From: an uncultured archaeon
GTDB taxonomy: Archaea > Micrarchaeota > Micrarchaeia > Micrarchaeales > CABMGC01
Assembly (NCBI GenBank): GCA_963752955.1
Contig: CAVWAD010000002.1
Span: 8,573 to 72,572, forward strand
Length of the DNA stretch: 64,000 nucleotides
Reading direction: 5' to 3'
The translations under genes were made by a program, and so were the position numbers. A model generated the notes under the pieces. The model saw nothing but the letters and a program-made list of their open reading frames with translations. It made no database searches and was not told the origin of the DNA. Positions within the stretch are counted from its first letter, which is position 1; each line of letters begins with the position of its first letter. Shown one piece after another: positions 8,186-63,469 of the stretch.

Positions 8186-9670
8186 GTGAAAAGCGCAAGA
8201 ATCATGCAAGGGAACGCGCCTGCGATAATGTACAAAAGCACAAACGGATCCCCAGAGATTGTAGATTTTAAGAAGGCATTGTTTAAAGGGCAGGCCTCTG
8301 ACAGGGGGCTTTTCATGCCGACCGAGATTCCAGTCATACCTCAGGAGGTCATTTCATCAATGAAAGATATGGCGTACCCTGAGATAGCGTCAATAGTGCT
8401 TAGCTATTTCCTTGGAGGCGAGATACCGCAGAAAGAGCTCGGGGCGCTGGCCAAGGACGCGTATAACTTCGATGTCCCTATGCAGACGGTAAGTAATGAT
8501 GAGAGCATTCTGTGGCTGACCCGTGGCCCGACGCTGTCTTTCAAGGATCTCGCTGCAAGGATGATGTCCAGAATCATGCAGTACTATCTTAGAAAAGACG
8601 CGGAGGAAAAAAAAGTGCACCGCTCTCCCGAAGACGACGTGACCATCTGGGAGGACGACTTTGGCAAGATCACGATGCCTGCCTGGAAGGACAGTTCCGG
8701 CAAGATTACCGTGTTGCTCTCGACGTCTGGCGATACCGGCAGCGCGGTCGCACATGCGCTTTACGGATTGAGCAACATCGACTGCATAGTGCTGTTTCCG
8801 GAGAACGAAGTCACGGAGCTTCAGAGAAAGCAGATGACGACCCTTGGAAAGAACGTGACGACGTATGCGGTAAAGGGCACGTTTGACGACTGCCAGGCGC
8901 TGGTTAAAAGGGCGTTTGCGGACCCCGAGCTTGAATACCTCAACCTGACATCGGCGAACTCAATCAATTTCGGCAGGCTTCTGCCTCAGATAATACAGTA
9001 TTTCTACGCTTACTCCAGATCGGCCAAGGGGGAGGAGGACGAGCCTGTCATCTCCGTCCCCTGCGGAAATTTCGGTCATCTTACCGCGGGCATCATAGCA
9101 AAACGCATGGGGCTACCCATCCACAAGTTCGTCGCCGCCACCAACGCGAACGATGAGTTTCCGGAATTCCTAAAGAGGGGAATATACGAGCCCTTGGTGC
9201 CATCGAAAAACTGCATCTCCAACGCCATGAACGTTGGTCACCCCAGCAATCTTGCCAGGATAGTCGCTCTGTACGGGGGACAGATGGATGAGAAAGGCAA
9301 GATAGTCAAGATGCCCGATCTCGAGGCGATGGGAAAGGACATCTTCTCGGTGAGCATATCGGACGAAGAGACAATGCGAGCAATGCGGGGGATGTATGAC
9401 AAATACGGCATAATCCTAGATCCGCACGGCGCGGTTGGATGGGCGGGCCTGAAAGAATATCTGAAACAGGCGGTGGGCGCGAGACCTTGCGTCCTGTTCG
9501 AGACTGCGGATCCCGGCAAGTTCCTCAAGCCGATAAAGGACGCCTTGGGCATCGACCTAGAAGTCCCGAAAGTGCTGGCGGAACTGATGCATAAGAAGGA
9601 GAACTACAAGGTAATCCCGAACGAGTATGAGGAGCTGAAGAAAGCGCTGATGGCCTCGCTGAAGAACTGA
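8186..9670 (+). CDS. thrC: threonine synthase
   Basis: The PLP-lysine motif GPTLSFKD is present, together with STSGDTGSA and SANSINFGRLLPQ. The exact start is uncertain (GTG at 8186, or a downstream ATG). Confidence 0.85.
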   Translation: MKSARIMQGNAPAIMYKSTNGSPEIVDFKKALFKGQASDRGLFMPTEIPVIPQEVISSMKDMAYPEIASIVLSYFLGGEIPQKELGALAKDAYNFDVPMQTVSNDESILWLTRGPTLSFKDLAARMMSRIMQYYLRKDAEEKKVHRSPEDDVTIWEDDFGKITMPAWKDSSGKITVLLSTSGDTGSAVAHALYGLSNIDCIVLFPENEVTELQRKQMTTLGKNVTTYAVKGTFDDCQALVKRAFADPELEYLNLTSANSINFGRLLPQIIQYFYAYSRSAKGEEDEPVISVPCGNFGHLTAGIIAKRMGLPIHKFVAATNANDEFPEFLKRGIYEPLVPSKNCISNAMNVGHPSNLARIVALYGGQMDEKGKIVKMPDLEAMGKDIFSVSISDEETMRAMRGMYDKYGIILDPHGAVGWAGLKEYLKQAVGARPCVLFETADPGKFLKPIKDALGIDLEVPKVLAELMHKKENYKVIPNEYEELKKALMASLKN

Positions 9671-9698: not shown

Positions 9699-10217
9699 TT
9701 ATTGCCACCTACCGAGTTTTAGCACGGACACAGTTGTTTTTCTAGACCCGTAATTCCTTCGCTTAGGGTCAAAGAAGGTTTCAATTTCAACAAAGCCGTT
9801 CTTCTCCATCATCCTTCGCGAAGCATCGTTTTCAGAATGCCTCTCGGCATATATCGAATCGAACCCCGCAGCCCGGAGTTCTTTAACTGCAAGGGAAAGA
9901 AGACGACTTCCTATGCCCTTGCCTTTTAACTCACGGTCAACTACTGCCTCCCCGATATATCCATGATCTTTCTTCCCAAGGACTTTTGGACGCTTGACCA
10001 TCCGACCCCAGGTAAAAGAAACAAAACCGACTATCCTTCCATCGCGCAGAGCAAGCACCGCCCTGACAGTGCCTTTCTCTATATTATTCAGATGCACTTC
10101 AACCGATTTCCTCGGCAAGTAATTATAGGAGTTGGGACCATGCTGGAAGATTACGCGCTTCATCTCTTCCACATCTGCACCAGTCGCGTTCCGGTAGTGA
10201 ATCTTAATCATACTCAC
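9699..10217 (-). CDS. GNAT family N-acetyltransferase
   Basis: The acetyl-CoA binding pattern VDRELKGKGIGSRLL (Q/RxxGxG/A) sits in a 172-aa protein. Confidence 0.8.
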   Translation of the reverse strand: MSMIKIHYRNATGADVEEMKRVIFQHGPNSYNYLPRKSVEVHLNNIEKGTVRAVLALRDGRIVGFVSFTWGRMVKRPKVLGKKDHGYIGEAVVDRELKGKGIGSRLLSLAVKELRAAGFDSIYAERHSENDASRRMMEKNGFVEIETFFDPKRRNYGSRKTTVSVLKLGRWQ

Positions 10218-10224: not shown

Positions 10225-10650
10225 TTATTCGGACACCGTGAACCTATTTTCTAGGTAACAGTTAATCAGATTTTTCGCAGGGGGAAACAGGTTTTGTGGT
10301 ATCTCATTCTTGGAGAACCACTTCCATTCGCTCCAGTCCTCTGGAATCAGATTTTGGGGCTCACCCTCGATCTCAGCGATCACGCCTACGCCTACGTAGT
10401 GGTTGCCCAGGGCGTAATTCGCGTTAACGCAGATAACTTTCTGTTTTGTCACGCCGCAATCTAATTCCTCCCTGATGTCCCTTCTGACGGCGTCGGATAT
10501 TCTCTCTCCGAACCTGATGTCTCTTCCCGGGACGCCCCAGACTAGTTTTCCTTGGTACTTCCATCGCTCCGTCAGCAGCCCAAGCAGTATTTTGCCGTCC
10601 CTGACCACCAGGATATCTACATTTGCCTTTGGGTTCTTGCCATTTTCCAT
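10225..10650 (-). CDS. NUDIX hydrolase
   Basis: The Nudix box reads PGRDIRFGERISDAVRRDIREELD. The ATG at 10650 (MENGK) is preferred. Confidence 0.8.
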   Translation of the reverse strand: MENGKNPKANVDILVVRDGKILLGLLTERWKYQGKLVWGVPGRDIRFGERISDAVRRDIREELDCGVTKQKVICVNANYALGNHYVGVGVIAEIEGEPQNLIPEDWSEWKWFSKNEIPQNLFPPAKNLINCYLENRFTVSE

Positions 10651-10685
10651 CAGGATACCTTGTGTTTTAATTAGCACGAAAGAGT

Positions 10686-11369
10686 TTAGGCAAGGGCCGG
10701 ATCGCGTTCTGCGAACAGCCAGGATCCAAACGGGCCTGATTTTGATTCGTAAGGTTCAAGCCGATTCTGGATCTCTGTTATCTCTTTGGCCTGTTTGCCG
10801 CCCGGATAAAAGTGGGCCAGCGCATTCCATGCATCGCCTATTATTATCAGGGACTGGGTCACGACCTCCTTTTCGTTGGGTATCTCTCCCTTGGCTCCAG
10901 CCGCCCAGACCGTCAGTTTCGCCGTCCCGTAGGCAGCGTCGGCCGCCAGTTCCATCCCTATCGCGGACATCGAGTTCTGAGAGTTGCAGTCCCTTTTCGC
11001 CGGGGACAGCGCGGCCTTGGACCTGACAATCTTGGCCTTCTTGGCGGCCGTCTCTGCATTGAGTATGTTTTCAGCGGTGGGATCTTCCGCGCAGGCCCTC
11101 GCCGCATTTATCGCTTTAATCAGGGGATCCTTGTCGAGATATAGAGGGTGCATCTCGTTGCTGACGACGAACGAGCTCATGGCGGAGAGGCCGGGACGCA
11201 GTATGTCTCCGGTGAGCCTGCAGTAGTTGTTGAGTATGTGCAGGCTCTTCTCTGCGGCGTCGCACGCCGTCAGTACAGCCAGCTTCCTGACGTCCACATC
11301 CGTCCTTTCCGCCAAACTGATGGTGGGCTTCTTGCTCTCAATTTCCAGGGGTATCCAGCCCTCTTTCAT
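10686..11369 (-). CDS. hypothetical protein (227 aa, alpha-helical look)
   Basis: This is a long ORF with coding-like composition. No family was recognised. Confidence 0.5.
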   Translation of the reverse strand: MKEGWIPLEIESKKPTISLAERTDVDVRKLAVLTACDAAEKSLHILNNYCRLTGDILRPGLSAMSSFVVSNEMHPLYLDKDPLIKAINAARACAEDPTAENILNAETAAKKAKIVRSKAALSPAKRDCNSQNSMSAIGMELAADAAYGTAKLTVWAAGAKGEIPNEKEVVTQSLIIIGDAWNALAHFYPGGKQAKEITEIQNRLEPYESKSGPFGSWLFAERDPALA

Positions 11370-11450
11370 GCGCTCACATAAGGGGGTTGCCTTTCCTCAT
11401 TTATAAACTTAATCTGTGTTCTGCGATGCCGCGGTGCATGCCTCAGGCGT

Positions 11451-11477
11451 AGGGGGAGAGATTTGAACTCTTGCACC
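11451..11477. repeat. partial copy of the tRNA-Leu 3' end (attR-like)
   Basis: AGGGGGAGAGATTTGAACTCTTGCACC matches 12200-12226 inside tRNA-Leu at 26/27 positions. Confidence 0.9.
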
Positions 11478-11478
11478 G

Positions 11479-11910
11479 CTACACGAAGTCCCTGATGTGA
11501 ATTACCCGCGGCAATTTTGCCGACCTTATCAGTTTTTCGTCCGCGGTGTACAGCTCGGAATCGGTATTGATTGCCAGGGCCACATATGCCGCATCGTAGA
11601 ATGAGATGCTATGCTTTGCTGCGACATCGATGGTTCGCTCCATCAGACCCGCATCCAAATCGAACACTGCGAAGTTATAGTTCTCCAGCGCATTCGCTAT
11701 CACTTTCAGTTCTTCGACGGTGAATCTCCTCGCCTTCGAATAGCGCATGGCGTTCATCACCTCGTAGAACAGGAGGGAAGGCTCGCTGAGGCTTATATTT
11801 CCCGAGATGAGCGAGTCCCTGAGCCGGTGCGCCGCCTCCGAGTGCACTTCGTTAACGAAGAACTTCGCTATGACGCTGGCGTCAGCCACTACCCTCTCCA
11901 TATCGCTCAT
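11479..11910 (-). CDS. vapC: PIN-domain toxin (VapC-like)
   Basis: The VVADASVIAKFF start carries the first acidic PIN residue. The protein is 143 aa and overlaps the upstream antitoxin ORF. Confidence 0.8.
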   Translation of the reverse strand: MSDMERVVADASVIAKFFVNEVHSEAAHRLRDSLISGNISLSEPSLLFYEVMNAMRYSKARRFTVEELKVIANALENYNFAVFDLDAGLMERTIDVAAKHSISFYDAAYVALAINTDSELYTADEKLIRSAKLPRVIHIRDFV

Positions 11911-12130
11911 CCCTGAACTTCCTTATGGTAGAAGCGATGTCGCTCTTATGCTTCTTCTGCGAGTTGAATATCTTGTCGGTCAACGCGACGGCAAGGGCAA
12001 GGTTCCTCTGCTCATTTATCTTCTCCTTTATGAATTCCCTGATCTCCGCCGACCAGTTTATGTTGGCCCTCTTCATGCTGGCCTTGGTGGCCTTATCGAC
12101 CTTGACCAGGATCTGTTCCGCGTTCGCCAT
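11882..12130 (-). CDS. vapB: VapB-type antitoxin
   Basis: This 82-aa ORF overlaps the vapC start by 29 nt and has a charged N-terminal putative DNA-binding region. Confidence 0.6.
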   Translation of the reverse strand: MANAEQILVKVDKATKASMKRANINWSAEIREFIKEKINEQRNLALAVALTDKIFNSQKKHKSDIASTIRKFRDERYGEGSG

Positions 12131-12196
12131 GAACTCACTTTATATACTGTATATACTATATAGATATAAAAGGATTGCGTTTTTCATACGCCGTCG

Positions 12197-12282
12197 TGCA
12201 GGGGGAGAGATTTGAACTCTCGCACCCACAAAGGGAACGGGTCCTAAGCCCGTCGCATTTGGCCAAGCTCTGCCACCCCTGC
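12197..12282 (-). tRNA. tRNA-Leu (anticodon UAG)
   Basis: The hand-folded cloverleaf has acceptor GCAGGGG/CCCCTGC, anticodon stem ACGGG/CCCGT, loop CTTAGGA, a long variable arm and T-arm GAGAG-TTCAAAT-CTCTC. Confidence 0.9.
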
Positions 12283-28232: not shown

Positions 28233-29753
28233 CTTGACTTCGCCACTTCTCTCGTAAACTGACGAAAACTATTTTTATGCCAAGGGCAGTATTCTCATTG
28301 ATAAGATGAAGAACACAACTACGCCCTTGGGCGGTATAGCTATCATCGACAAGATAGAAAATGATTTCGGTCTGCTCTCCTCGGTCTTCGGAGGGATCAT
28401 GAGTCCCGCATACGTCGGGCGGTTGAAACTGCTCCTCAACAACCGCCTGACTTTCGCGACGTCGATACACCAGGTAATTCCCACCTCCTCTGAAGACACC
28501 TGTGCGCTTCTCGGCGCAGAGGGCGCCTCGGAGAGGTCGCTGTACAGAACCGTCGAGAAAGTGGGGCTGCTCTCGGCGGCGATAGTAGAAAGGTATCAGA
28601 ACTTCCTCAACACGAGGGATCTCGCAGACAAGGACCAGAACATAGACTGGTCGTCGATATATTTCGAGGGGAATAAGGCCGAGATGGGCGCACTGGGTTA
28701 CTCCAGGGACCACCGCCCCGACAAGAAGCAGGTGACCTTCGGGATAGCGACGGGAATCAATGGAATCCCTACTGCACTGACGATTCAGAAGGGGAACGTC
28801 CTGGACAAGAAGCATTTTGTCGAGACGTACAACGTCGTCAAGAGGATACTGCAGAAGGATTCCCTATTGATATTCGACTGCGGCGCGAACACGAAAGGTA
28901 ACAAGGAGATGATAGTCCATGACAGGTTCAACTACCTGACCCTGAAGCAGAAGAACGTCAAGAACTATAGGAAATATATCGCCATGTTCAAGTCCGCGGA
29001 GAAATCGACGATAAAAATCGGCGACAACACCTACTTTGCGGCAGTGGTGGAAGAGAACGGCGAATTCCAATACATCTACTTCTCGAAGACGCTTCTCGAG
29101 ACGCAGATACGCAACAAGAACAGGAAGTTCGAAAGGCGAAAGAAGATGGGTAACAAACTCGCGAAGAAAGCGGGAAAACACAAGGCGGTGGAGACTTACC
29201 CCTGCGAGAGGGGATGGGTCGAACTCTACCCGGAACTCCAGACCGCACTGGGATGCGTCGAGAACCCCTACATAAACGGGATAGAGGGGTTCTTTATCCT
29301 CGAGAGCACGGTGAAAGCGAGTCCCGATGATATCCTGAGGATATACAAGCAAAGGGATGCCGCGGAGAAACTCGTGCGCAACATGAAGGAAGGGATCGAA
29401 CTGAGGCCTGTCAGGCACTGGACGAAATATGCAATAATCGGCGCAATCCTGATCGCATTCCTCGCGGAATCCCTGATAAGTTTGACACTGCTTTCATGCA
29501 AGAATCCCCTCGTCAAGAACGTAAAGCTCCTCAAAAAATACCTGACGAATTTGACAGCGACCTTCGTTTACCCTCCCGGAAGGTTCAAATTCACGGTAGT
29601 GAGCAACATTTCTCCCCCGATTTCGGAGATTTTCGGCAGTTTCCTGCGCAGATATGGTACGAAAAACCTCAATCTGCGCTGGTAGGAACCGTTTTGGCGA
29701 ATTGAGTTGGAGGCAACTGTCAGACACTTCGCGGCCTATTTGGCGAAGTCAAG
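28233..29753 (+). mobile_element. IS1634-family insertion sequence, copy B
   Basis: It has the same 1521-bp element and inverted repeats as copy A, in inverted orientation. A 7-bp target duplication TTATTTA lies at 28226-28232 and 29754-29760. Confidence 0.9.
28306..29685 (+). CDS. IS1634-family transposase
   Basis: The translation is identical to that of 17208..18587. Confidence 0.85.
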   Translation: MKNTTTPLGGIAIIDKIENDFGLLSSVFGGIMSPAYVGRLKLLLNNRLTFATSIHQVIPTSSEDTCALLGAEGASERSLYRTVEKVGLLSAAIVERYQNFLNTRDLADKDQNIDWSSIYFEGNKAEMGALGYSRDHRPDKKQVTFGIATGINGIPTALTIQKGNVLDKKHFVETYNVVKRILQKDSLLIFDCGANTKGNKEMIVHDRFNYLTLKQKNVKNYRKYIAMFKSAEKSTIKIGDNTYFAAVVEENGEFQYIYFSKTLLETQIRNKNRKFERRKKMGNKLAKKAGKHKAVETYPCERGWVELYPELQTALGCVENPYINGIEGFFILESTVKASPDDILRIYKQRDAAEKLVRNMKEGIELRPVRHWTKYAIIGAILIAFLAESLISLTLLSCKNPLVKNVKLLKKYLTNLTATFVYPPGRFKFTVVSNISPPISEIFGSFLRRYGTKNLNLRW

Positions 29754-29766
29754 TTATTTATATATC
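29754..29766 (+). promoter_or_regulatory. TATA-like box of the giant surface-protein gene
   Basis: TTATTTATATATC lies about 30 nt upstream of the ATG at 29792. Its first 7 nt are the IS target duplication. Confidence 0.45.
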
Positions 29767-29791
29767 TAGTCAGTTACAGTATAACGTTTGT

Positions 29792-32700
29792 ATGCGAAGG
29801 CGAAAAACAGCCACGAGACCCGCATTACTGTACACCGCGCTGTTCCTGATCCTAGTCGCAGTCATCTCACTGAGCTTCATCCCCGCGAAATCGGCCGCGC
29901 ACGCGGGCGCGGCGGCGCAGTCCGTCGCGTTCTCCGCGCCGATTGCCTCGGGCGCGGGGCCGGCGAACGTGATCCGCCCCGCGGTCATGCAGGAAAGCTC
30001 GGAGTGCTCGGGCAATTCCGACTGCGCCTGCACGAATCCGTGGTGCTACTCGGACTCCGTTGGCGGGCCCGAGAGCTGCCATCCCTGCCCTTTGGGTTCG
30101 CAGCTGGGCCAATCGGCCGACGGGACGGCGATCTGCGCTTATAACAGCGGGGGCTCCATGCCTTTCAGCGCCGGGGCGTCCGGCACCTGCATCAGCGGAG
30201 TGCCGACCGCGAGCAGCACGGCGGCCCAGAGCATCGCGCCCGCGGGGACCCAGTGCTCGGCCGCCAACCCGTGCCCCTGCACGGAGTCGTGGTGCGTCGG
30301 AGGGAGCTGCCAGGCGTGCCCCCAGGGCTTCTACCCGAACGGCGTCGGGGAGTGCGAATCCTTGAGCGGCGGGAGCTATCAGGGCTTCACGACGTCGTCC
30401 GGCTGCACACCCAGCACCGCCGCGTCGACGATCAGCAACACGGGCGGGAGCATCGGGAGCGGGAGCGTGGCGGCGAACTGCCACGGCACCTCTGACTGCT
30501 ACTGCAGCGAACCTTACTGCGTGCAGGGGAACTGCTACCCGTGCCCTGCGAAATACAAGTGGGACAGCGAGACGTCGCAGTGCATATCGCTCGCAGATGG
30601 CTCCATATATTCCGGAACTGCGCCCACCGGCTGCATGAGCGGCATCGTGCAGACGTCGTCGGGCGAGAGCATAGGAAGCGGGAGCGTGGCGGCGAACTGC
30701 GCGAGCCCCGCCGACTGTTTCTGCAGCGAACCGTACTGCAACAGCGGGAACTGCTATCCCTGCCCGCCGACATACTACTGGAACAGCGAGAACTCGCAGT
30801 GCATATCGATCAGCAACGGCGCGGTATACTCCGGGGCGGCGCCCACAAACTGCAAGAGCACCCTTCCCTCGACTTCGGGCAACAGCGGCGGGAGCATCGG
30901 GAGCGGGAGCGTGGCGGCGAACTGCCATGGCACCTCCGACTGCTACTGTAGCAGCCCGTACTGCGTCCAGGGCGACTGCTACCCGTGCCCGTCGACATAC
31001 TACTGGGACAGCCCGGACGCGAAATGCGTATCGCTCGCCGACGGCTCCATCTACGCCGGCGCGAGGCCCACCGACTGCATGAGCGGCGTTCCGTCGACCG
31101 CCGCCACGGCGACCCAGACCACCTCGTCGGGAGGGACCCAGTGCTCGGCCACCAACCTGTGTTCCCAGTGCACTGATTCATGGTGCGTCAGCGGGGAGTG
31201 CCAGCCGTGCCCGTCCGGCTGCTACCTGAGCGGCGCGGGAGGGGCGTGCCTGTCCTATCCGTCGACGCCGGGGGCCAGCGGGGTAAGCAAGTGCGCGCTC
31301 GCCTCGTCTCCTGCCTCCACGTGCGGCAGCACGTCGTCCGGCGGAACTTCATCCAACGGCGTGGCTGGCGGCTCGACGCTCATCGTCAGCCTGCCCGGTT
31401 CCGCGGGCGTCGTTAGCATAGGAGCGGGCTCGCAGGCCGCGCAGCCGAGCGTGAAGACGACGGACGCGACCCTCACGTCGCCGCCCGCGCCCGCTGGCCT
31501 GTCGAAGATCTCGGCCGTCACAGTCAGCGTGACCCCGAACACGTCCGCGCCGGTCAGCGTGACGCTGCCCTACCCGTGCTCCGCGTCTTCGGGAGACATA
31601 GCGCCCTACGCCGTGGTCAACGGCGCGTGGAGCAAGATAGGCTCATTCACGATAAACCCGAAGGCGTGCTCAGTATCGTTTCCGATAAGCTCCGGGTCCC
31701 AGGCTTCCGGCGGCAGCGGCACAACGTCCCAGGCTTCCGGCAGCGGCGCTTCAACAGGCAGCGGGACCGCTTCGAGCGGCGGCGCTTCCTCGAACAGCGG
31801 CGGATTTCCCTCGGTCACGCTACCGATCCAGGCTTCTAGCGCCGTCGGCGCGCGCCCCTTAGTTCCCGCCATCGACGCCGCCCCCGCGGCGCAGGGCGGC
31901 GCTTCCCCAAACGCGGGAATCTCCCTTGACAGTTCGTCCTCGTCGGAGGGCACTTCCCAGACGGTGGGCATATTCGAGACGTCTTCCGGCTCATGCACCA
32001 ACTACTGCGACGGCGTCGGCGGATCCGGCGCCTCGTGCACTAGCATCATGAGCGTGGACGCGCAGGTGGTGCAGATCAGCATATGCCACCTCTACCAGAC
32101 GGTCACGACCGCCTTCGATAACCCGGGGTCGGAGCTGGCGGCGTCGGGACAGGCGGGGCCGTTCGACACCTCCCCGGCGAACGCGGTGAACGACTACAAC
32201 GCGCAGAGCGCGCTGCCCCTCCTCACCTGCCCGAACGCGCCCGAGAAGAACCCAACTGACGCAAGCTACTTCTACTCGGGAGCGGTCCCAAACGTGGCGG
32301 GCGACGCGTGCACGCCGGTGCCCTCGAGTCTGAAGACCGGCATAGACCTCCAGACCGATTTTTCGACCATGCAGATGGTCGCATACTCCTACAGCACCTC
32401 GCCGCTGCCCATACAGGTCAATGGCCACCTGGTGGAACAGCCCACCACGTTCTACGACTACGTGAGCATCGAGGACGCGAAGGTGAACCCCGACATGGTA
32501 GTGTCGAACGTCGGAAGCCTGCAGCTCGAGGACATCGCGTACTCGCCGATGATCCTGGATGGGTCGGGCGGCACGATATCTAGCGCCTTCGCGACCAACA
32601 GCTACGTCTTCGACGGCGTCCCGGCCTCGGCGCAGCACGCCATATGGACCTGGACCGCCCAGTTCGCGGACCTGTCCAACGCCGCGCCCGACCAGCAGAC

Positions 32701-35700
32701 AGTGGTGCTCACCGACCTCCGGGCGAGCTACTCATGGTCGCCGCAGGCGATACACCCCAGCAGCAGCTGCAGCTCCGTCCTGTACTCCTGCGTCTACAGC
32801 TACACCCTCACCGCGGTGACGTCGCTGAGCGGCATCGCCAACACCTACGTGCCCTTCAACGTGGTGACCCCGGACGGGCCGAAGCCGGTGAGCTCCAACG
32901 TACTTCCCTACTTCACGTTCGGCGCCTCGATGCCGACGCCGGACGGGCAGCCGATGTCGCAGTCCTACGACGTCTTCAGCCCGCTGAACTACTACACGCC
33001 GGGGAACTCCATCGAGATGTTCCCCATCAACACGCCGGGCGCGTTCTTCGTGCAGCGCGCCGTGAGCCCGCCCTTCACCAGCTACCTGCTCTCGATGCCC
33101 GAGGGCACGGTGAACAACGCCCTTGCCTTCGGCAGCGCGCTGGACGCCGCGTACGGCAGCGATCCGAAGTTGCCGCCGAGTCTCGTCAGCCTGAGTGCGG
33201 CGAATCCCGGCGCTGGCGCGGCGAATCCGTTCCCGGCCAACCCGATCTCGGTCACCGGCACGCCCGAGGGCTATGTCTTCGTACTAAATTCGAGCTGCAC
33301 GGGGCCGTATCCCTGCACGCCCACTTACTACCTCAGCATCCTCAGGCCGGTGGACAAGGGCTACTACAGCATCCCCGGCTACCAGCCGAACGGCGTGCCC
33401 CAGGCCGCCGCGGGGACCGACGCGGCGGCGAACGCCCTGTGGGCCGGCAACTGGAAGAGCTACTGGGAGAACGTCATGGCGCTGCAGAGCAACTCGATCT
33501 ACGTGGTTAACACGCTCACCCTCAGCACCCCCGGGACCCTCAAGGTGCCCGAGGGGACGGGCCTGCTCTCCGGCTACACCAAGCAGCTCCAGAGCCAGGA
33601 GTTCGGGCTCGGATGGGGGTTCGTGCCGCTCAACATAAGCGCCGACTCGAGCGGGGACGTCTTCATAACCGGCTCCGAGGGCGCGCTGCTGGGCCTGGGC
33701 GGCGGCTTCCCGGCGATAGTGGAGGTAAGCAACACGCTCAACCCCACGCAGACGCAGGTCACAGCGACGCCGCTCGACTGGTCGAGCAGCGTCGGGATCA
33801 ACGCCCTGCCCGAGATAGCGGCCACCTCCACAGGCGGGCTGATCTTCGCGACGGGCCCGAAGGAGGGCAAGATCTACGCGTTCGCGCCGTCAGGCGACGG
33901 GATCTCCAACGCCTACGACATCGACCTCGCTTACTCCGCCAGCACATCCGTGAGCGGATCCGGGACCGTGATGCTTAACGTGAGCTACTACCTGTACCAC
34001 GGCGGGCCCTACGGCGTCCCTATGAACGGCGCTGTGGTGAACGGGGTCCAGACGCCCAACGCCATCGACGGGAACAACAACCTCGACGCTGGCAGGGACT
34101 TCGACACCGACCTGCAGCACCACCCGCTCGGGATCCAGGAATCCGGGGGCTTCCTCTACGTTCTGGACGACTGGAGGGGCTACGCGGGCTCCAGGGAGTC
34201 CTGCCCGCTGCTGGGCTCCTGCACGTTCACGGGCGGGATGGCCTTCGACATGCTCTCTGTGAGGGTGCTCAACTCCACGGGTTCGAACCTGCCCGTGGAC
34301 CCTACGCGCTTCAACGACATGTGGCAGTCGCAGTCGTGCGACAACCCGATGTTCCTGGGCCACACTTCCGGCGGCCTGTCGGCCGGCGACATCACACCGA
34401 GCGCCCCCACGATAAGCAGCGGGCAGTCCGTCACCCTCACCGCCAACCCCTCTGGAGGGACGCCTCCGTACACCTACGGCTGGTACGTGGACCCCGGCTG
34501 CACGTCGCAGATAGCCAGAGCGGCATCCAGTACCTACACCACGTCCCCGACGGGCACGGACACCTTCTATTACAAGGTCAAAGACAGCGCCGCGACTCCC
34601 GCGACGGTGTGCTCCGCGGGAGACACCGTGACCGTGAGCAACGGCGGCGGAGGAAGCGGCATCGGAGCAGCGACCTGCGGCGGACCGATACTCCCGCCCT
34701 GCCCGGCTTCGGGCAGCGCCTCCCAGAGCGGCGGCACCGCTTCGGGTACCGCACCAGCCTCGCAGACTCCGAGCGCCGGCTCGCAGCCCGTGCAGGCCGA
34801 CGTGAACACGTGCTACGACACGACCAAGCCGCCGGCAACTTCCATACCCACGTGCTCGCCGAAGGAGTGCAGCCTCGCCATGGCGGGCTGCGACCTCCCG
34901 GGCGGGGTCGTCGGGACCAAGTTCTCGTGCGAGGACAAGAGCACGGGTAGCGGAGCCTACTCCACGCTCGCCACGAGCCAGTACGCCAGCGGCACCTACC
35001 CCCCCTATGGCTGGGTCCTCTCAGCGGACGTCGTCCCGTGGGGCGGCGAGGGACCCGCCGACAATGCCAAGGAGGTGACCTTCTGCTCCTCGTCGGGATG
35101 CTCGTTCAACCCGGGCAAGATGCCGGGCCCGGACATGTACTCCGGCGGCTACACGCCAGTCGGGCCCGAGCTCTCTGTCGCGAACGCGGAGATAGACTCG
35201 CCCGCCTTCTCGGTGAACTTCAACGGCACGCTTGACCTGCTGCTGAACACGCCGAAGCCGGGCATAGTATCGAGCCTGTGCAGCTTCTTCCTCGGCGCGC
35301 TCTGCGGAAAGCCGCCCAACCCGACGGCCTATTCAGAACTGCTCACCGCGGACCTCAACATACTGAACTACACGAAGATCCTCCAGGGCGAGCCGGCGTA
35401 CACCTGCTACACGACGGACACCAACGACCAGAACTACCGCGCCGGAGGGTGCAACTACCTGCCGGAACTGGGCGACAGCGCGTACACCGGCCCGATATAC
35501 ACTTTCCCGAACCCGCTCGAGTACCTAGAGAGGGTGGGCGGCGCGCAGACGCTGAGCTTCGCAGGCCAGGTGTCCTCGTCATACCCGTCGGGCACCAGCC
35601 ACGAGGGCTGCCAGAGCCTGATAACCGGGGGTCAGGGATGCACGTCCAACGCGCTGTACAACCCCGGCCCGCCCGCGCTGACGATCCAGCAGGATCCCGT

Positions 35701-38122
35701 CGGGTGGGGGCAGCCCGACGTCATAACCGGCAAGGCGGAGGCGGCGACCGACGAGGTCGTCATCTACTTCAACAACGAGGTGGCGATGACCGGAACCGGC
35801 ACCGCGTCGTTCACCGTATCCGGCAATCCTGCGATATGCACCAACCCCGGCAGCGTCACCGAACAGTACACCCTGCCCATCGAGAACTGCCCGCCGCCCC
35901 GCGCGGAACCGTACTCCGTGAACGTTGTCGACCTAACGACCGGCCAGTACAACGCCAACGCGCTGACCGTATATCCCGCGCCGCTCCTTGCGCTGCAGAG
36001 CTCCACGGTAGACGTCGAGCAGTCGGGCGCCGGGAACTCGTGCACCAGCGACCTCATAACCGCGAACGCGCTGGACAACGTGGGCACCGTCGTCATATCC
36101 ATAGCGGAACCCGGGGGCGGCGAGGTCGCGAGCGCCTCTGGCACGGGCTCCGCCTACTACATAATACCGGGCAGCGCCGGGCTCTGCGACGGCCTCACCG
36201 CGGGCACGTACACCGTCACCGCGAGCGTGGCCGGCCAGAGCCCCGTCAGCCAGAGCCTCTACGTCAGCACGACCACGACCCAGCAGGCCCTGCCGGCCGG
36301 GTCGGTGGCGACGCAGGCGCTGTCGACCAGCGTGGGCGGCTATGTTGTGGTGCCCTATAAGTACACCTACTCACTGCAGCAGGACTGGGGCGGCGCCGCC
36401 GAGGTCGTCAGCCTGTCCAGCACCACGCAATGTGACTGCAAGACGGGCTGCAGGACGCCTACTGTGGGAGCCGACTGCCCCTACAACGTGGTCCCCGACC
36501 GGCAGTTCTCGCAGCAGACGGTCTACAGCTACGCGCTCACGAGCGGCACTTCGGATACGCTGACCGCGACGGTCGAGAGCGGCGACACCTACCTGAAGAG
36601 CCTCAGCTCCGGCACGCTCTACGTCCCGAACATGTCCGACGCGGGCGTAGTGGTGCCTCCGCAGGTGCTCTACGTCCTTATGAACAACAGGCTCTTCGGC
36701 ACGCTCTACGTCAACGACACTGGCTGCAAGCATAACGGCGCCTCGGTCTGGGACTGCTCCGGGAACCCGCAGTACGTGCTCAACGCGACCAGGCAGGACA
36801 AGTACGCCATGAACTCATACTCGCAAGACGGCGGCGGCGCCGGTGGCTCCGGAAGCTACGAGACCCTGCAGGTCCTGCCCGAGGAGGAGCCCGAGTACGG
36901 CGCGAACCTCATAGCCCCGTCCCAGCTCCAGCAGGCGGTGACCACCCAGAACGCGATCGGCTTCGCGTACGAGCTGACGGGCGGGATGGACTTCGTCTCG
37001 ATCTTCGACCTCTACAGGCAGGTCGCCTACTCCAACCCGCTCTACATGTACCTCAACAGCACGCCGTTCTTCGAGAACGGGCTGCCGGTCAACGCGATGG
37101 GCTACCACAGGCTGACGTACGTCATGGAGGACAGGTTCGGCAACAGGATCATGGCGCCGATGGACGTCGACGTGGCCAACCCAGTGACGATAGCCCTCAA
37201 CGTCAGCACCGCGGTGGACCAGAACAACGCCAACCAGACCGCCCTCACGATAAACGGGGTCGCCGGGTCGTACTCGGACTTCGGCACGGTCTTCACCCCG
37301 CTGCCGGCGGGCCAGCCGGTATACCTCTACTACAACAGCAACCTCAACTACGTCGAGTACAACCCCATGCGCAACCCGCTCGACGCCGTCATCTGCGCCT
37401 ACAACCTCAACGACCCGACGAAGCAGCCGTGCCACCAGTCCGACCCGACTTACACCGGAAGGCAGGCGAACGCCGGCCAGATGACTTTCGCGACGTCGTA
37501 CAACTCCGCAAGCCCGGACGAGTGCAACCCCCCGCCGAACAGCCTGCTGGCCAAGAGCTGGACACCGTGCAACGTCTACGGGAACCTCGACCTCCCCTCG
37601 GCGTGCACCGGCGCGGGGCCGCAGCAGTTCTGCATGCCCGTGTACGCCAACGGCACGGGCGAGTGCACGTCGCAGCTCGGGCTCTTCGCGATCGCCCAGA
37701 CCGACGCCAGCGGCGCGTTCAGCGCAAACATAATAGCGTGCGGGAGCAGGCAGGACGAGATAACCGCGCAGTACTACGGATGGTCACCTACGCCGGAGCC
37801 GATCTCCGTGACGCAGGTGCCGCTCGCGCTCTCCGAGAGCAGGGTCAACACGCCGGGCTCAGCGGGGAGCGCGGCGATAACGTCCAACGAGCTCAACTAC
37901 TACTCGGCTCCGGCGCAGGCCACGACGACTTTCACGATAGGCCTCTTCGAGCTCAACTACGGCGACCTTGGGGTAGCCGCGTTCGGAATCGGCATAGTGG
38001 CGGTGCTGGCGATCCTGGTCGCGAAGAAGGCGGCGGAGGATAGGAGGGCGAAGAGGCGGCGCGTCGGGGTCCGCGGCCGGACGGCAGCAGGAAGGATGCG
38101 GAGGCGGACGCCTCCGATGTAG
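29792..38122 (+). CDS. giant (2776 aa) secreted, C-terminally membrane-anchored cell-surface protein with Cys-rich modules
   Basis: The signal peptide reads MRRRKTATRPALLYTALFLILVAVISLSF..AKSAA. It is followed by six tandem 8-Cys modules, S/T/G-rich linkers, an Ig/PKD-like segment (SGGTPPYTYGWY) and many N-x-S/T sequons. The C-terminus has a TM helix (VAAFGIGIVAVLAILVA) and a basic tail. The track ORF start at 29654 lies inside the IS and is an artefact. Confidence 0.85.
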   Translation: MRRRKTATRPALLYTALFLILVAVISLSFIPAKSAAHAGAAAQSVAFSAPIASGAGPANVIRPAVMQESSECSGNSDCACTNPWCYSDSVGGPESCHPCPLGSQLGQSADGTAICAYNSGGSMPFSAGASGTCISGVPTASSTAAQSIAPAGTQCSAANPCPCTESWCVGGSCQACPQGFYPNGVGECESLSGGSYQGFTTSSGCTPSTAASTISNTGGSIGSGSVAANCHGTSDCYCSEPYCVQGNCYPCPAKYKWDSETSQCISLADGSIYSGTAPTGCMSGIVQTSSGESIGSGSVAANCASPADCFCSEPYCNSGNCYPCPPTYYWNSENSQCISISNGAVYSGAAPTNCKSTLPSTSGNSGGSIGSGSVAANCHGTSDCYCSSPYCVQGDCYPCPSTYYWDSPDAKCVSLADGSIYAGARPTDCMSGVPSTAATATQTTSSGGTQCSATNLCSQCTDSWCVSGECQPCPSGCYLSGAGGACLSYPSTPGASGVSKCALASSPASTCGSTSSGGTSSNGVAGGSTLIVSLPGSAGVVSIGAGSQAAQPSVKTTDATLTSPPAPAGLSKISAVTVSVTPNTSAPVSVTLPYPCSASSGDIAPYAVVNGAWSKIGSFTINPKACSVSFPISSGSQASGGSGTTSQASGSGASTGSGTASSGGASSNSGGFPSVTLPIQASSAVGARPLVPAIDAAPAAQGGASPNAGISLDSSSSSEGTSQTVGIFETSSGSCTNYCDGVGGSGASCTSIMSVDAQVVQISICHLYQTVTTAFDNPGSELAASGQAGPFDTSPANAVNDYNAQSALPLLTCPNAPEKNPTDASYFYSGAVPNVAGDACTPVPSSLKTGIDLQTDFSTMQMVAYSYSTSPLPIQVNGHLVEQPTTFYDYVSIEDAKVNPDMVVSNVGSLQLEDIAYSPMILDGSGGTISSAFATNSYVFDGVPASAQHAIWTWTAQFADLSNAAPDQQTVVLTDLRASYSWSPQAIHPSSSCSSVLYSCVYSYTLTAVTSLSGIANTYVPFNVVTPDGPKPVSSNVLPYFTFGASMPTPDGQPMSQSYDVFSPLNYYTPGNSIEMFPINTPGAFFVQRAVSPPFTSYLLSMPEGTVNNALAFGSALDAAYGSDPKLPPSLVSLSAANPGAGAANPFPANPISVTGTPEGYVFVLNSSCTGPYPCTPTYYLSILRPVDKGYYSIPGYQPNGVPQAAAGTDAAANALWAGNWKSYWENVMALQSNSIYVVNTLTLSTPGTLKVPEGTGLLSGYTKQLQSQEFGLGWGFVPLNISADSSGDVFITGSEGALLGLGGGFPAIVEVSNTLNPTQTQVTATPLDWSSSVGINALPEIAATSTGGLIFATGPKEGKIYAFAPSGDGISNAYDIDLAYSASTSVSGSGTVMLNVSYYLYHGGPYGVPMNGAVVNGVQTPNAIDGNNNLDAGRDFDTDLQHHPLGIQESGGFLYVLDDWRGYAGSRESCPLLGSCTFTGGMAFDMLSVRVLNSTGSNLPVDPTRFNDMWQSQSCDNPMFLGHTSGGLSAGDITPSAPTISSGQSVTLTANPSGGTPPYTYGWYVDPGCTSQIARAASSTYTTSPTGTDTFYYKVKDSAATPATVCSAGDTVTVSNGGGGSGIGAATCGGPILPPCPASGSASQSGGTASGTAPASQTPSAGSQPVQADVNTCYDTTKPPATSIPTCSPKECSLAMAGCDLPGGVVGTKFSCEDKSTGSGAYSTLATSQYASGTYPPYGWVLSADVVPWGGEGPADNAKEVTFCSSSGCSFNPGKMPGPDMYSGGYTPVGPELSVANAEIDSPAFSVNFNGTLDLLLNTPKPGIVSSLCSFFLGALCGKPPNPTAYSELLTADLNILNYTKILQGEPAYTCYTTDTNDQNYRAGGCNYLPELGDSAYTGPIYTFPNPLEYLERVGGAQTLSFAGQVSSSYPSGTSHEGCQSLITGGQGCTSNALYNPGPPALTIQQDPVGWGQPDVITGKAEAATDEVVIYFNNEVAMTGTGTASFTVSGNPAICTNPGSVTEQYTLPIENCPPPRAEPYSVNVVDLTTGQYNANALTVYPAPLLALQSSTVDVEQSGAGNSCTSDLITANALDNVGTVVISIAEPGGGEVASASGTGSAYYIIPGSAGLCDGLTAGTYTVTASVAGQSPVSQSLYVSTTTTQQALPAGSVATQALSTSVGGYVVVPYKYTYSLQQDWGGAAEVVSLSSTTQCDCKTGCRTPTVGADCPYNVVPDRQFSQQTVYSYALTSGTSDTLTATVESGDTYLKSLSSGTLYVPNMSDAGVVVPPQVLYVLMNNRLFGTLYVNDTGCKHNGASVWDCSGNPQYVLNATRQDKYAMNSYSQDGGGAGGSGSYETLQVLPEEEPEYGANLIAPSQLQQAVTTQNAIGFAYELTGGMDFVSIFDLYRQVAYSNPLYMYLNSTPFFENGLPVNAMGYHRLTYVMEDRFGNRIMAPMDVDVANPVTIALNVSTAVDQNNANQTALTINGVAGSYSDFGTVFTPLPAGQPVYLYYNSNLNYVEYNPMRNPLDAVICAYNLNDPTKQPCHQSDPTYTGRQANAGQMTFATSYNSASPDECNPPPNSLLAKSWTPCNVYGNLDLPSACTGAGPQQFCMPVYANGTGECTSQLGLFAIAQTDASGAFSANIIACGSRQDEITAQYYGWSPTPEPISVTQVPLALSESRVNTPGSAGSAAITSNELNYYSAPAQATTTFTIGLFELNYGDLGVAAFGIGIVAVLAILVAKKAAEDRRAKRRRVGVRGRTAAGRMRRRTPPM
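30005..31330 (+). repeat. six tandem ~75-aa Cys-rich coding modules
   Basis: The module consensus is C-x5-6-C-x-C-x3-(W/Y)C-x3-4-C-x2-CP...C...C. The DNA stretches starting at 30443 and 30887 are identical for 41 nt and have 3 mismatches over about 67 nt. Confidence 0.85.
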
Positions 38123-40896: not shown

Positions 40897-40968
40897 GGGC
40901 TTGTAGCGCAACGGTAGCGCGTCTCGTTTGCAACGAGAAGGTTACGGGTTCGAATCCCGTCAAGTCCA
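40897..40968 (+). tRNA. tRNA-Ala (anticodon UGC)
   Basis: The cloverleaf has acceptor GGGCTTG/CAAGTCC with the G3:U70 Ala identity pair, anticodon stem TCTCG/CGAGA, loop TTTGCAA and T-arm ACGGG-TTCGAAT-CCCGT. Confidence 0.9.
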
Positions 40969-40996
40969 CTTTTCGATCTGATGGGACGGCCTAGGC

Positions 40997-41266
40997 CTAG
41001 TATTTATCTGGATGATGCTCGAGATTCACCAAGGAGACTATCTGTTCCTTGTCGTCAACTCTGAACATCAGCACAAACCTGCCGTGCATCAGGTGCACTT
41101 CCCGTACGCCGGCATAGCTGCCATGCATCCATTTGCCTGCCGTATAAGGCGCTTCGGCTATCTTGTCAAGCTTTTTCATAAGCTGATAATAAAGCGCCCT
41201 GTCCCGCTTCTGCAATCTGGCAAGCTCGGCTTCCACACTCTCTACGGGCCTTACCAGATACGTCAT
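40997..41266 (-). CDS. RelE/ParE-family toxin
   Basis: The 89-aa protein has the C-terminal pattern GRFVLMFRVDDKEQIVSLVNLEHH. It lies immediately downstream of a small antitoxin ORF. Confidence 0.65.
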   Translation of the reverse strand: MTYLVRPVESVEAELARLQKRDRALYYQLMKKLDKIAEAPYTAGKWMHGSYAGVREVHLMHGRFVLMFRVDDKEQIVSLVNLEHHPDKY

Positions 41267-41277: not shown

Positions 41278-41505
41278 TTAGGCAAGATTGCGTCTCTTTA
41301 TCGCCCTGTCAAGCTCAGAAACAGATCTGTAAGTGTGGTATTTGCCTTTCGACAGCTCCATGAGCCCGCGTTCCAGCCCAAGGTTCCGCTTCTGACTTAC
41401 CACTTTCCTCAGTACCTTGACCTCGGCTTCAAGGCGGCCTATTTTGGCCGCCATACCCTTCAGTTCCTTCATAATCTGTACCTGTTCGGCCTTCATGTCC
41501 ATCAA
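41278..41505 (-). CDS. antitoxin partner (75 aa, coiled-coil)
   Basis: It is positionally coupled, 11 nt upstream of the toxin. It is similar in layout to 46972..47172. Confidence 0.5.
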   Translation of the reverse strand: MMDMKAEQVQIMKELKGMAAKIGRLEAEVKVLRKVVSQKRNLGLERGLMELSKGKYHTYRSVSELDRAIKRRNLA

Positions 41506-41678: not shown

Positions 41679-41897
41679 CTAGACGTACTTGAGGATATCT
41701 TCTTTTGTCAAGTTGCAATCGCTTAGGATCTTATTTAGTATTCCCTGCCCCAGTTCCCTGTTGTGGTAGGGAATCGTGGTGTAGTGCTGACCGTCGGTCA
41801 AGAAAATATGGCTTCCCTTTTGCCTAAGGGCGCGGTAGTTGTAGTATTTAGTAAGTATCTTGAGCAAACCCGTGTCTTTGATGGTCAGACGAGGCAT
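41679..41897 (-). CDS. hicA: HicA-family toxin
   Basis: The protein has the pattern RQKGSHIFLTDGQHYTTIPYHNRELGQGILNKIL. Confidence 0.8.
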   Translation of the reverse strand: MPRLTIKDTGLLKILTKYYNYRALRQKGSHIFLTDGQHYTTIPYHNRELGQGILNKILSDCNLTKEDILKYV

Positions 41898-41911: not shown

Positions 41912-42097
41912 TTAGACGCTGGCTCTAATGGCGATCTTATTCTTGCGCATCTCAACTAGGCCTTCGACTGTGACCTCTATGGCCTCTTTCAGGTTCTTTT
42001 TAAGCTCCCTTATCGTCTTTGCCTGAGTGTTTATGTGGAGCGAGGGTATTCGCGCAGCGTACATCCCTTTCTCCTTCCATATTTCTATGTTTTGCAT
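41912..42097 (-). CDS. hicB: HicB-like antitoxin (UPF0150 type)
   Basis: This 61-aa ORF lies upstream of hicA and has the YAARIPSL..TQAKTIRELKKNLKEAIE pattern. Confidence 0.65.
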   Translation of the reverse strand: MQNIEIWKEKGMYAARIPSLHINTQAKTIRELKKNLKEAIEVTVEGLVEMRKNKIAIRASV

Positions 42098-46704: not shown

Positions 46705-46967
46705 CTATTTGTACGCGCCGCCACGCCATTCTATGTCGGATACCTCTATCTGCTCGAGGTTCCAGACGACATTGTAAAGTACGCGTATGCCTCTATCCTT
46801 ATCCTGTAGGTGTCGTCCATGCCCTGAAGCTTCTTCACATCGTACAGGCCCGCGGGCACGGCGTCATTCTTGAGCGTCTCAATAAGTTCTTCCGCCCGCT
46901 TCCGGTAATGAATCGGCATCCCTTCCGCCGATTTCTGCGCCCTTTTGGCGACCTTCACCAGGAACAA
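46705..46967 (-). pseudogene. relE: RelE-family toxin with a frameshift
   Basis: Frame A reads ..KKLQGMDDTYRIRIE and then runs into a stop at 46746. The conserved continuation GIRVLYNVVWNLEQIEVSDIEWRGGAYK* is in another frame, ending at 46705. The shift is near 46788-46794. Confidence 0.7.
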
Positions 46968-62652: not shown

Positions 62653-63069
62653 TTACATTATACTTTTCTTCAGCAATAACGACAAGTCGCCTATTGAGAA
62701 TATCTTTACTTTGCGCTGTTTCCTAAAATCGGTATCATAACTCCATATACCATCTGCGCGCAGACTCAGCGCGAGTGCGATATAGGGTTCATCGTCCTTG
62801 TCTATGCCTCCTATCACCTTATGAGCTTCTCTCATACTTTTCGCGTAAAACTGTTTCGGCATTATCCTGATTTTCTTAGTGATGAGTTCCAAGGCGGATT
62901 TGTATCCCTTTCCGGTTTTGGCAGATATTTCTTTTTCGTGTTCCTTTATCTCATCAAGCAGGAAGTCAGGCGAATAATAGTCAATATAGGGATAAAGCAG
63001 CACTTCCCTCGTTATTGAAGATCTGACCAACGCAGCAACAACTACATTGGCATCGACTACTATCTTCAT
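62653..63069 (-). CDS. vapC: PIN-domain toxin (VapC-like)
   Basis: The MKIVVDANVVVAAL start is present and the protein is 138 aa. It overlaps the antitoxin stop by 4 nt. Confidence 0.8.
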   Translation of the reverse strand: MKIVVDANVVVAALVRSSITREVLLYPYIDYYSPDFLLDEIKEHEKEISAKTGKGYKSALELITKKIRIMPKQFYAKSMREAHKVIGGIDKDDEPYIALALSLRADGIWSYDTDFRKQRKVKIFSIGDLSLLLKKSIM

Positions 63070-63398: not shown

Positions 63399-63469
63399 TG
63401 GAGGCACAGGGAATCGGACCCCGGCTTGCAGAATGTCAATCTGCCGTCCTACCACTAGACTATGCCTCC
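63399..63469 (-). tRNA. tRNA-Val (anticodon GAC)
   Basis: The cloverleaf has acceptor GGAGGCA/TGCCTCC, D-stem GTCT/GGAC, anticodon stem GCAGA/TCTGC, loop TTGACAT and T-arm CGGGG-TCCGATT-CCCTG. Confidence 0.85.

Follow-up and report, generated by a model that had tools for sequence, protein, structure and literature searches.

A candidate mobile vapBC cassette at the tRNA-Leu(UAG) integration hot spot of Micrarchaeota

Superintegron arrays contain toxin-antitoxin (TA) cassettes that are thought to stabilise them. Bacterial integrative elements also have derivatives, cis-mobilisable elements (CIMEs), that lack a recombinase but are flanked by attachment (att) sites and can be mobilised by the integrase of a related element. 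In archaea, the 'suicidal' integrases of the SSV1 type are encoded by a gene that holds the attachment site attP and is split on integration (PMC8371274, PMC7253208). Integrases of this type (type I) are described as capturing elements at the tRNA genes of archaea (She et al. 2001, as summarised in PMC8371274), and a survey of Sulfolobus islandicus found trapped, decaying elements at tRNA genes with vapBC as cargo (PMC3718332). Two reviews make no mention of DPANN archaea among the hosts of such integrases (PMC8371274; Badel et al. 2020, PMC7253208), and a limited search of the literature found no description of TA-only cassettes or of gene-splitting integrases in DPANN. Here we describe a vapBC pair next to the tRNA-Leu(UAG) gene in a 64-kb stretch of DNA (the window, which is the part of the genome that was visible to us) from a member of the Micrarchaeota (DPANN). 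We lean toward the view that the locus is a product of site-specific recombination in the 3' part of this tRNA gene, and that a discrete vapBC cassette moved after the host lineages had split, likely by means of an integrase supplied in trans.

We found that vapBC is bounded by two copies of a 27-nt sequence from tRNA-Leu(UAG) (Table 1). The copies are 749 bp apart and in the same orientation. Between them are only a 65-nt spacer, vapB and vapC, with both open reading frames (ORFs) on the tRNA strand. The vapC stop codon (11479-11481) is 1 nt from the end of the distal repeat (11477). A preliminary description of this DNA had reported the 27-nt copy with its one mismatch, the presence of only vapB-vapC between the copies and the abutting stop codon, and our analysis bears out all of these. 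There are exactly two copies of the 27-mer in the window with up to 3 mismatches allowed, and none in 100 dinucleotide-preserving shuffles. The exact distal variant had no match in GTDB representative genomes, and the 27-mer had none in IMG/VR. These results speak for a displaced tRNA 3' fragment, such as site-specific integration typically leaves, and against a dispersed repeat.

The 27-mer corresponds approximately to positions 57-83 of the tRNA. It includes the complete T-arm (GAGAG-TTCAAAT-CTCTC), with the final 5 nt of the variable region before it and 5 of the 7 acceptor 3' bases after it. The single mismatch is C12221 in the tRNA gene versus T11472 in the distal copy, equivalent to G49 versus A49. 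In the tRNA gene G49 pairs with C65, but A49 in the distal copy has no partner, which breaks the T-stem; relatives whose tRNA-Leu has A49 also have a compensating U65. The sequence of the window tRNA-Leu is the same as that in two related loci (L091 and L094) and differs by 1 nt from that in two others (L086 and L092). Because the gene copy matches the tRNA of close relatives and keeps the T-stem pair, the change was derived on the displaced side, which answers the question of the mismatch side raised in the preliminary description.

We found that the products of the two genes resemble known VapBC pairs. VapB matched the Sulfolobus-type model NF050799 over its full length (E=1.3e-11, 44.9 bits; below the curated cut-off of 60), and a protein identical to VapB has a precomputed weak match to PF26688 (RHH_12). 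The solved structure nearest to VapC is that of Pyrobaculum PAE0151 (PDB 2FE1, E=4e-8), with the DAS, YEV, YDAAY and T-D motifs aligned. The acidic residues of the PIN domain are all there: D10 (VVADASV), E50 (LFYEVMN), the aspartate of YDAAY (approximately residue 106, by count) and D124 (YTADEKL). The two genes overlap by 29 nt, or by 20 nt if VapC starts at M4 (11901), which is likely the true start, as in its 140-aa homologs. Like known type II TA pairs, the window pair combines a PIN toxin that has its acidic residues with a small, overlapping, upstream antitoxin gene. The proteins themselves show nothing unusual, and their toxicity is predicted from sequence. The spacer upstream of vapB, with its TATA-like boxes, presumably acts as a promoter. 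An Rfam search of positions 11000-12600 revealed no RNA family besides tRNA-Leu. Scans of JGI metagenomes with the vapC end and with a wobble-degenerate vapB core gave no matches in either case.

Table 1. Features of the vapBC locus and of the other loci discussed. Positions without a locus prefix are those of the window.
Feature	Coordinates	Strand	Details
tRNA-Leu(UAG)	12196..12282	-	intact; integration target, putative attL side / reconstituted gene; ARAGORN; Rfam RF00005, 54.9 bits (start 12196/12197)
Proximal 27-mer copy	12200..12226	-	AGGGGGAGAGATTTGAACTCTCGCACC; inside tRNA
Spacer, tRNA 3' end to vapB	12131..12195	-	65 nt; TATA-like boxes TTTTATATC, TATATAAAG; homologous in L091 and L086
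vapB, antitoxin	11882..12130	-	82 aa; NCBIfam NF050799 TA_anti_VapB_Sulfo
vapC, PIN-domain toxin	11479..11910	-	143 aa; PF01850, E=4e-11
Distal, displaced 27-mer copy	11451..11477	-	attR-like scar; 26/27 identical
ORFan (ORF without homologs)	10686..11369	-	227 aa; GC3 0.70
NUDIX gene	10225..10677	-	GC3 0.60
GNAT gene	9699..10217	-	GC3 0.49
thrC-like gene	8186..9670		ortholog follows vapC after 39 nt in L091
tRNA-Ala(UGC)	40897..40969		
Ala unit 1	40997..41266 (ParE-like toxin); 41278..41505 (antitoxin)	opposite tRNA-Ala	
Ala unit 1, end	41628-41648 (21-nt arm); 41656-41667 (12-nt tRNA copy)		
Ala unit 2	41679..41897 (HicA toxin); 41912..42097 (UPF0150/HicB-like antitoxin)	opposite tRNA-Ala	
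Ala unit 2, end	42160-42180 (21-nt arm); 42188-42199 (12-nt tRNA copy)		
tRNA-Val(GAC)	63399..63469		
Val unit	63066..63287 (antitoxin); 62653..63069 (PIN_2 toxin)	same as tRNA-Val	
Val unit, end	62607-62627 (arm); 62587/62588-62599 (12-13-nt tRNA 3' copy)		
Integrase element	L073:1983-5869		
Integrase element	L065:636-5899		5.2 kb
Integrase element	L041:1064-4441		

We found that vapBC is present at this site in some close relatives and absent from others. The adjacent seryl-tRNA synthetase (SerRS, encoded by serS) places the host in the Micrarchaeota, with only ~70% SerRS identity to the best species-representative genomes. A SerRS search found four closer genomes, at 88%, 88%, 88% and 83% identity. 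A large protein search found two VapC homologs at 82-83% identity, in L091 and L086, both directly downstream of a serS-linked tRNA-Leu(UAG) and with a homologous spacer; among VapC homologs at 53-60% identity, none adjoins a tRNA gene or an integrase. The order in L091 is serS, tRNA-Leu, vapB, vapC and then unrelated sequence. In L086 (overlapped by L093, which is the same genome), tRNA-Leu is followed by a ParE-like TA pair, a 63-nt partial tRNA-Leu (positions 25-87, 62/63 identical), the spacer, vapB, vapC and unrelated sequence. This is a textbook case of a recent insertion, by which the ParE-like cassette pushed the old tRNA end and vapBC outward. The ParE-like pair (within L086:261-1828) is homologous to the first cassette at tRNA-Ala in the window (40-47% aa, tblastx), and its toxin stop codon lies ~4 nt from the partial tRNA, echoing the abutment of the vapC stop codon and the 27-mer.

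In contrast, vapBC is absent beside tRNA-Leu in three other loci. A convergent purC lies 21 nt past tRNA-Leu in L092, a convergent purB lies 7 nt past it in L094, and a 1343-aa gene is next to it in L096. Among the nearest lineages, then, the cassette is present in three (window, L086 and L091) and lacking in three. This is the insertion polymorphism for which the preliminary description had asked relatives to be compared. Homology of the three cassettes extends from the tRNA to at most 2 nt past the vapC stop codon, and the distal neighbours differ: an ORFan-NUDIX-GNAT block in the window, a thrC-like gene in L091, and a homolog-less 167-aa ORF followed by purC in L086. Each of the three cassettes appears to have landed at tRNA-Leu with an identical left junction. 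That the ends agree in three genomes, although each has another distal neighbour, fits a discrete mobile unit at least as well as decay in place.

We found that vapBC differs from the neighbouring genes in composition and in age. The GC content at third codon positions (GC3) is 0.89-0.90 in serS, ileS and the saccharopine dehydrogenase gene, 0.75 in vapB and 0.72 in vapC. Between the window and L091, identity at four-fold sites is 64/76 (0.84) for vapBC versus 36/56 (0.64) for serS (Fisher p=0.013), and versus 64/129 with other flank genes included (p=6e-7). Between the window and L086, it is 52/71 (0.73) for vapBC versus 93/160 (0.58) for serS (p=0.038), and versus 242/422 with other flank genes (p=0.013). 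The identity expected by chance from base composition at these sites is 0.42 for serS and 0.30-0.32 for vapBC. After correction for chance, vapBC keeps 61-77% of the signal and serS 28-38%, so that vapBC is ~2.6-4.9 times less diverged. Stronger constraint is not a sufficient explanation, since protein identity is no higher for VapC (0.82) than for SerRS (0.82-0.88). Because its synonymous sites are less diverged than those of serS, the three cassettes separated after the host lineages split. The vapBC pair is thus foreign in composition and younger than the split of the host lineages. At the ~8% per-lineage divergence of the cassette, a neutral 27-mer would keep at least 26 identities with P=0.35; one change in 27 nt therefore means that the distal copy can be as old as the window cassette. 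The preliminary description had suggested a different or older type of insertion than at the tRNA-Ala and tRNA-Val genes of the window. On these dates an older age is not supported, although the type is different (see below).

Based on these results we suggest a route by which the locus could have formed. A vapBC unit carrying a tRNA-Leu 3' segment as its attachment site would recombine with the tRNA gene, presumably as a circular intermediate of 749 bp. The tRNA gene would be rebuilt from the unit's own copy (attL), and the 27-mer would be left at the far side (attR). The unit has no recombinase and so cannot move by itself. The enzyme would likely be a tRNA-Leu-specific tyrosine integrase acting in trans, supplied by elements that use the same tRNA gene and carry a gene-splitting integrase. 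Such an element is probably also the ultimate source of the cassette itself. The PIN RNase VapC and the labile antitoxin VapB would form an addiction module, and loss of the unit, for example by recombination between the repeats, would be expected to poison the cell. From the known behaviour of type II TA systems, loss of such a unit would be costly, and this would explain why TA pairs persist at tRNA sites.

To place the locus in context, we compared 49 fetched Micrarchaeota loci that have the divergent serS / tRNA-Leu(UAG) arrangement. Displaced tRNA-Leu 3' copies were found 0.6-5.2 kb downstream of the gene in 8 of the 49, and tblastn revealed a full or fragmentary integrase beside the tRNA in 8 further loci. 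With footprints in at least 16 of the 49 loci, the serS-linked tRNA-Leu(UAG) is an integration hot spot. Within the loci that have displaced copies, a tyrosine recombinase adjoins the tRNA in L041, L065 and L073 and is broken in L061 and L051. Full integrases also adjoin the tRNA of L026, L037 and L038, with fragments in L018, L005, L006, L035 and L054. The elements carry TA pairs (HicAB in L073, DUF4258/DUF2283 in L065 and L050, AbiEii in L056) and various other cargo. The displaced copies in L011 (3312-3400) and L061 (1742-1830) extend into the anticodon arm and have the loop CTTAAGA (anticodon UAA), while the resident gene is tRNA-Leu(UAG); their attachment site seems to derive from another tRNA-Leu isoacceptor.

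The integrase genes of these relatives are arranged as in SSV1-type elements. The int(C) frame reads out of the 3' half of the tRNA, and int(N) consists of an ATG and ~16 codons that run in frame into the displaced copy (MARNxGxKQLGxxLKPLAGSRVQISPPA). Both halves were found in L073, L065, L041 and L051. The linker is open in five diverged elements, with length differences that are multiples of three. This arrangement indicates that the gene contains attP and is split by integration. The core in these elements is ~40 nt and reaches the tRNA 3' end. The reconstituted integrase has 314 aa and matches PF00589 only, not PF16795, the family assigned to the 'suicidal' integrases of SSV, pTN3 and pT26-2 (PMC8371274). 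The Micrarchaeota enzymes may represent a family not described before, or gene-splitting integrases may have arisen here independently.

The hot spot bears on the notion that no integration took place. The window vapBC might be an ordinary chromosomal pair, and the 27-mer might stem from local partial duplication of the tRNA or from illegitimate recombination, or might be a tRNA-like RNA signal for the vapBC transcript. The lack of a recombinase in the window, and the fact that L091 and L086 keep vapBC without the repeat, would be in keeping with this. However, integrases demonstrably target this tRNA-Leu in many relatives, where the repeats have the same geometry; empty sites exist, and the composition of vapBC is foreign. 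The distal 27-mer, with its unpaired T-stem base, also has no oligo-T terminator and is matched by no Rfam model. We regard an origin without integration as very improbable.

A second alternative grants integration but no movement of the cassette. A larger element with its own gene-splitting integrase could have integrated once in an ancestor, been trapped there because integration disrupted the integrase gene, and been whittled down during genome streamlining to the TA pair and a scar, which were inherited vertically while the cassette or the scar was lost elsewhere. Reduction of this kind is visible in relatives. In L050 (5200-5887), only a DUF4258/DUF2283 pair lies between tRNA-Leu and a 20-nt displaced copy. 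By eye, the pair closely resembles that beside the full integrase in L065 (4250-5899), and vestiges of both integrase halves remain in L050: ~20 aa of int(C) and an int(N) start, 'ATATGGCT'. L050 thus directly exemplifies the reduction of an element to the TA module, and in L051, L061, L018, L005, L006, L035 and L054 the integrase is at intermediate stages of decay. Spacers in these genomes are 7-39 nt, so that deletions ending at stop codons are expected, and trapped degenerate elements, with vapBC among the imports, are known at archaeal tRNA genes (PMC3718332, PMC8371274). In contrast to L050, there is no integrase vestige on either side of the window vapBC. The cassette ends are identical in three genomes despite different distal neighbours. 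Moreover, when a given pair of genomes is compared, the synonymous divergence of vapBC is significantly below that of serS, which speaks against a purely vertical inheritance. We therefore think that a stranded relic is a rather unlikely explanation of the window locus. The preliminary description had proposed a remnant reduced to an addiction module; this describes L050 better than the window cassette.

We looked for a recombinase that could have served the window cassette. Tyrosine and serine recombinases were absent from Pfam searches of the unannotated mid-size ORFs of the window, which instead gave DDE transposases, an AbiEii toxin, helix-turn-helix (HTH) regulators and GrpB. Neither int(C) nor int(N), the halves expected of an SSV1-type element, is in the window. 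At the distal copy, no start codon reads into the integrase frame, and the vapC stop codon abuts the repeat. A helper integrase may be encoded elsewhere in the genome, beyond the visible 64 kb. Two other kinds of mobile DNA were considered and rejected: an integron, as there is neither IntI nor attC, and an insertion sequence (IS) or transposon, as a 27-nt repeat of a tRNA segment is no target-site duplication and the DDE transposases of the window are elsewhere.

Several observations weigh against movement of vapBC by site-specific recombination. One is the end of the distal copy. It stops 3-4 nt before the tRNA 3' end, reading ...CCCCCT and then ACGCC, without GCA(C). As the former end of a working tRNA, the displaced copy would be expected to have GCA(C), and at the window Leu locus it does not run to the tRNA 3' terminus. 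The displaced copies in L086, at tRNA-Ala and tRNA-Val in the window, and in the integrase elements of relatives all do reach the tRNA 3' end. Conceivably 2 nt were deleted; such a deletion would give CCCCCT--ACG, which matches the tRNA plus one flank base. The similarity of the window sequence downstream of vapC to the 3' two-thirds of the tRNA is itself strong (Smith-Waterman score 50, reached by none of 2000 shuffles).

A second difficulty is that the L091 and L086 cassettes have no detectable displaced copy after vapC. Smith-Waterman scores of the post-vapC sequence are at or below the shuffle mean, and we rejected the idea that this sequence is a decayed tRNA copy. If recombination of attP with attB was conservative, a copy of this kind would be expected, so its absence counts against integration. 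The copy could have been deleted later, a secondary recombination could have taken place at the inner edge of the core, or the cassette could have been acquired by another route. The first of these is plausible, given that intergenic DNA is kept to 7-39 nt and that loss of the repeat would lock in a cassette whose excision would be toxic. In L086, 140 nt past the vapC stop codon (1969-1981), the 12-nt sequence GGGCGAGAGTTC has the orientation of the 27-mer and agrees with its start (GGTGCGAGAGTTC). This is suggestive only: a displaced copy may have left it as a final remnant, or the match may be due to chance. The 167-aa ORF of L086, which as a truncated purB would have been a sign of deletion, shows no similarity to that gene.

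The remaining points concern the enzyme, the free form and the dating. A tblastn search of the window with three Micrarchaeota tRNA-Leu integrases matched only tRNA-derived bases. An IMG/VR search with VapC, the relatives' integrase and the 27-mer revealed no free form. In Logan contigs from 7 public runs, the locus was present in 150-230-bp fragments at a depth of 2-5, with no joints, a coverage too sparse to reveal excision. The comparison of synonymous sites rests on 71-76 positions of vapBC, and the constraints of a small overlapping operon could bias it. Finally, the block beyond the distal copy, rather than vapBC, may have brought or refreshed the 27-mer.

This last point leads to an explanation by accretion, in which vapBC was already beside the tRNA and the ORFan-NUDIX-GNAT block came later, for example into an old distal att site, bringing the 27-mer as its own end. 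In L091, tRNA-vapBC is followed after 39 nt by an ortholog of the thrC-like gene, and what the window has in excess of L091 is exactly the 27-mer, the ORFan, the NUDIX gene and the GNAT gene. The GC3 of the block (0.49-0.70) is more atypical than that of vapBC, and its first gene has no homolog: a search of 5.8e9 proteins, made also in the hope that the 227-aa ORFan would lead to an empty site joining it to the tRNA, found only the ORFan itself. These features fit a recent foreign arrival distal to vapBC, a position that simple stacking at the tRNA does not predict for a recent block. However, the far end of the block (9671-9698) showed no further tRNA-like copy in local alignment, and the block lacks a recombinase. 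An attP ending in ...CCCCCTACGCC would destroy the real tRNA-Leu on integration. Accretion would still require a vapBC att site at this position. We judge it improbable. Recombination of a vapBC unit with the tRNA gene remains the explanation that we favour.

ARAGORN found three tRNA genes in the window (Leu, Ala and Val), and each carries at least one TA-only unit. Two units are in tandem at tRNA-Ala (40897-42205), where 6 nt of the tRNA trailer (CTTTTC) recur as well at the outer copy, and one is at tRNA-Val. In the Ala and Val units the core is 12 nt long and extends to the tRNA 3' end, and a conserved arm of 21 nt, AAAATRCNCNTCACCTKAYGT, lies immediately inside it. With up to 3 mismatches allowed, the arm occurs in the window only at 41628, 42160 and 62607 and is absent at Leu, in line with the earlier failure to align it there. 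Its 16 scattered bacterial matches in 596 Gb of genomes were judged to be approximately what chance gives for a short degenerate pattern and thus carry no information on a recombinase. An arm-like sequence in the 3' end of vapC, AATTCACATCA, lies 15 nt before the repeat, the spacing of the Val arm; it agrees at 9/19 positions, is coding sequence and was treated as a chance match. By its features the Leu unit is an att type different from that of Ala and Val: it has no arm, its core is 27 nt versus 12 nt, and the core falls short of the tRNA 3' end.

Units of 0.5-0.8 kb that hold only a TA pair and have tRNA 3' copies are thus found at Ala (two), Val and Leu in the window and also in L050 and L086, and L056 has a 1.45-kb TA unit bounded by tRNA 3' copies. 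It is tempting to see the Leu, two Ala, Val, L086 and L050 units (promoter, antitoxin, toxin and tRNA 3' fragment) as members of a distinct class of recombinase-less cassettes in DPANN, captured and stacked at tRNA genes in the manner of integron cassettes by gene-splitting integrases acting in trans, and spreading between lineages. We offer this generalisation as a speculative one that may well not hold.

The window contains other mobile or defence-type genes. Two inverted IS copies (16850-18587 and 28306-29750) flank ~10 kb. Their 459-aa DDE transposases share the listed first 60 residues, and the adjacent ORFs share the first 33 residues; the terminal ORF of the second copy is fused in frame to a 2822-aa ORF (29654..38122, GC 0.66). 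Two more DDE transposases are at 1222-2169 and 38247-39209. An AbiEii toxin with an upstream partner is at 24113-25412, and a 73-aa ORF at 46746..46967 is RelE-like by eye, with no Pfam match. A 365-aa ORF at 49210-50307 has a GC content of 0.36 and no Pfam match.

DPANN genomes are tiny and streamlined, and little is known of how they acquire and keep foreign DNA. In Micrarchaeota, one tRNA-Leu gene is a recurrent landing pad, and the gene-splitting integrases of the cited literature are only from other, mostly thermophilic, archaeal orders. The survivors at such tRNA sites are repeatedly bare TA pairs. Should the bare pairs prove to be mobile as units, no simpler site-specific mobile cassettes would be known in archaea, and they would offer a way to learn how addiction modules settle in minimal genomes. 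As relics only, they would be a clean natural example of an addiction module that outlives its element.

The window unit belongs to a known kind, the integrase-less, att-flanked archaeal elements integrated at tRNA genes. What is unusual is the DPANN host, the TA-only content and the presence of the same unit in three lineages. Like SSV1-type elements, the unit has a tRNA 3' target, a direct repeat that bounds the insert and vapBC as typical cargo. It differs from them in having neither integrase half. Its repeat (~57-83) differs from the ~40-nt core of the relatives' elements, its host is outside the orders listed for such integrases in the cited reviews, and the relatives' integrase has PF00589 only, versus PF16795 for SSV, pTN3 and pT26-2 (PMC8371274).

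The unit is also similar to the CIMEs. It has attL/attR-like repeats at a tRNA gene and lacks an integrase, and its site is used also by related elements that bear one. Tandem arrays, as at tRNA-Ala in the window and tRNA-Leu in L086, are a further likeness. However, the unit is far smaller (0.75 kb, TA only) and archaeal, and its mobilisation in trans is putative. With the TA cassettes of chromosomal integrons, the window units share a small, promoter-bearing TA operon, stacking at one recombination site and a presumed stabilising role. In contrast to those cassettes, the window units have neither IntI nor an attC-type imperfect palindrome, their recombination site is a tRNA 3' segment, and their orientation varies, being opposite to the tRNA at Ala and the same as the tRNA at Leu and Val.

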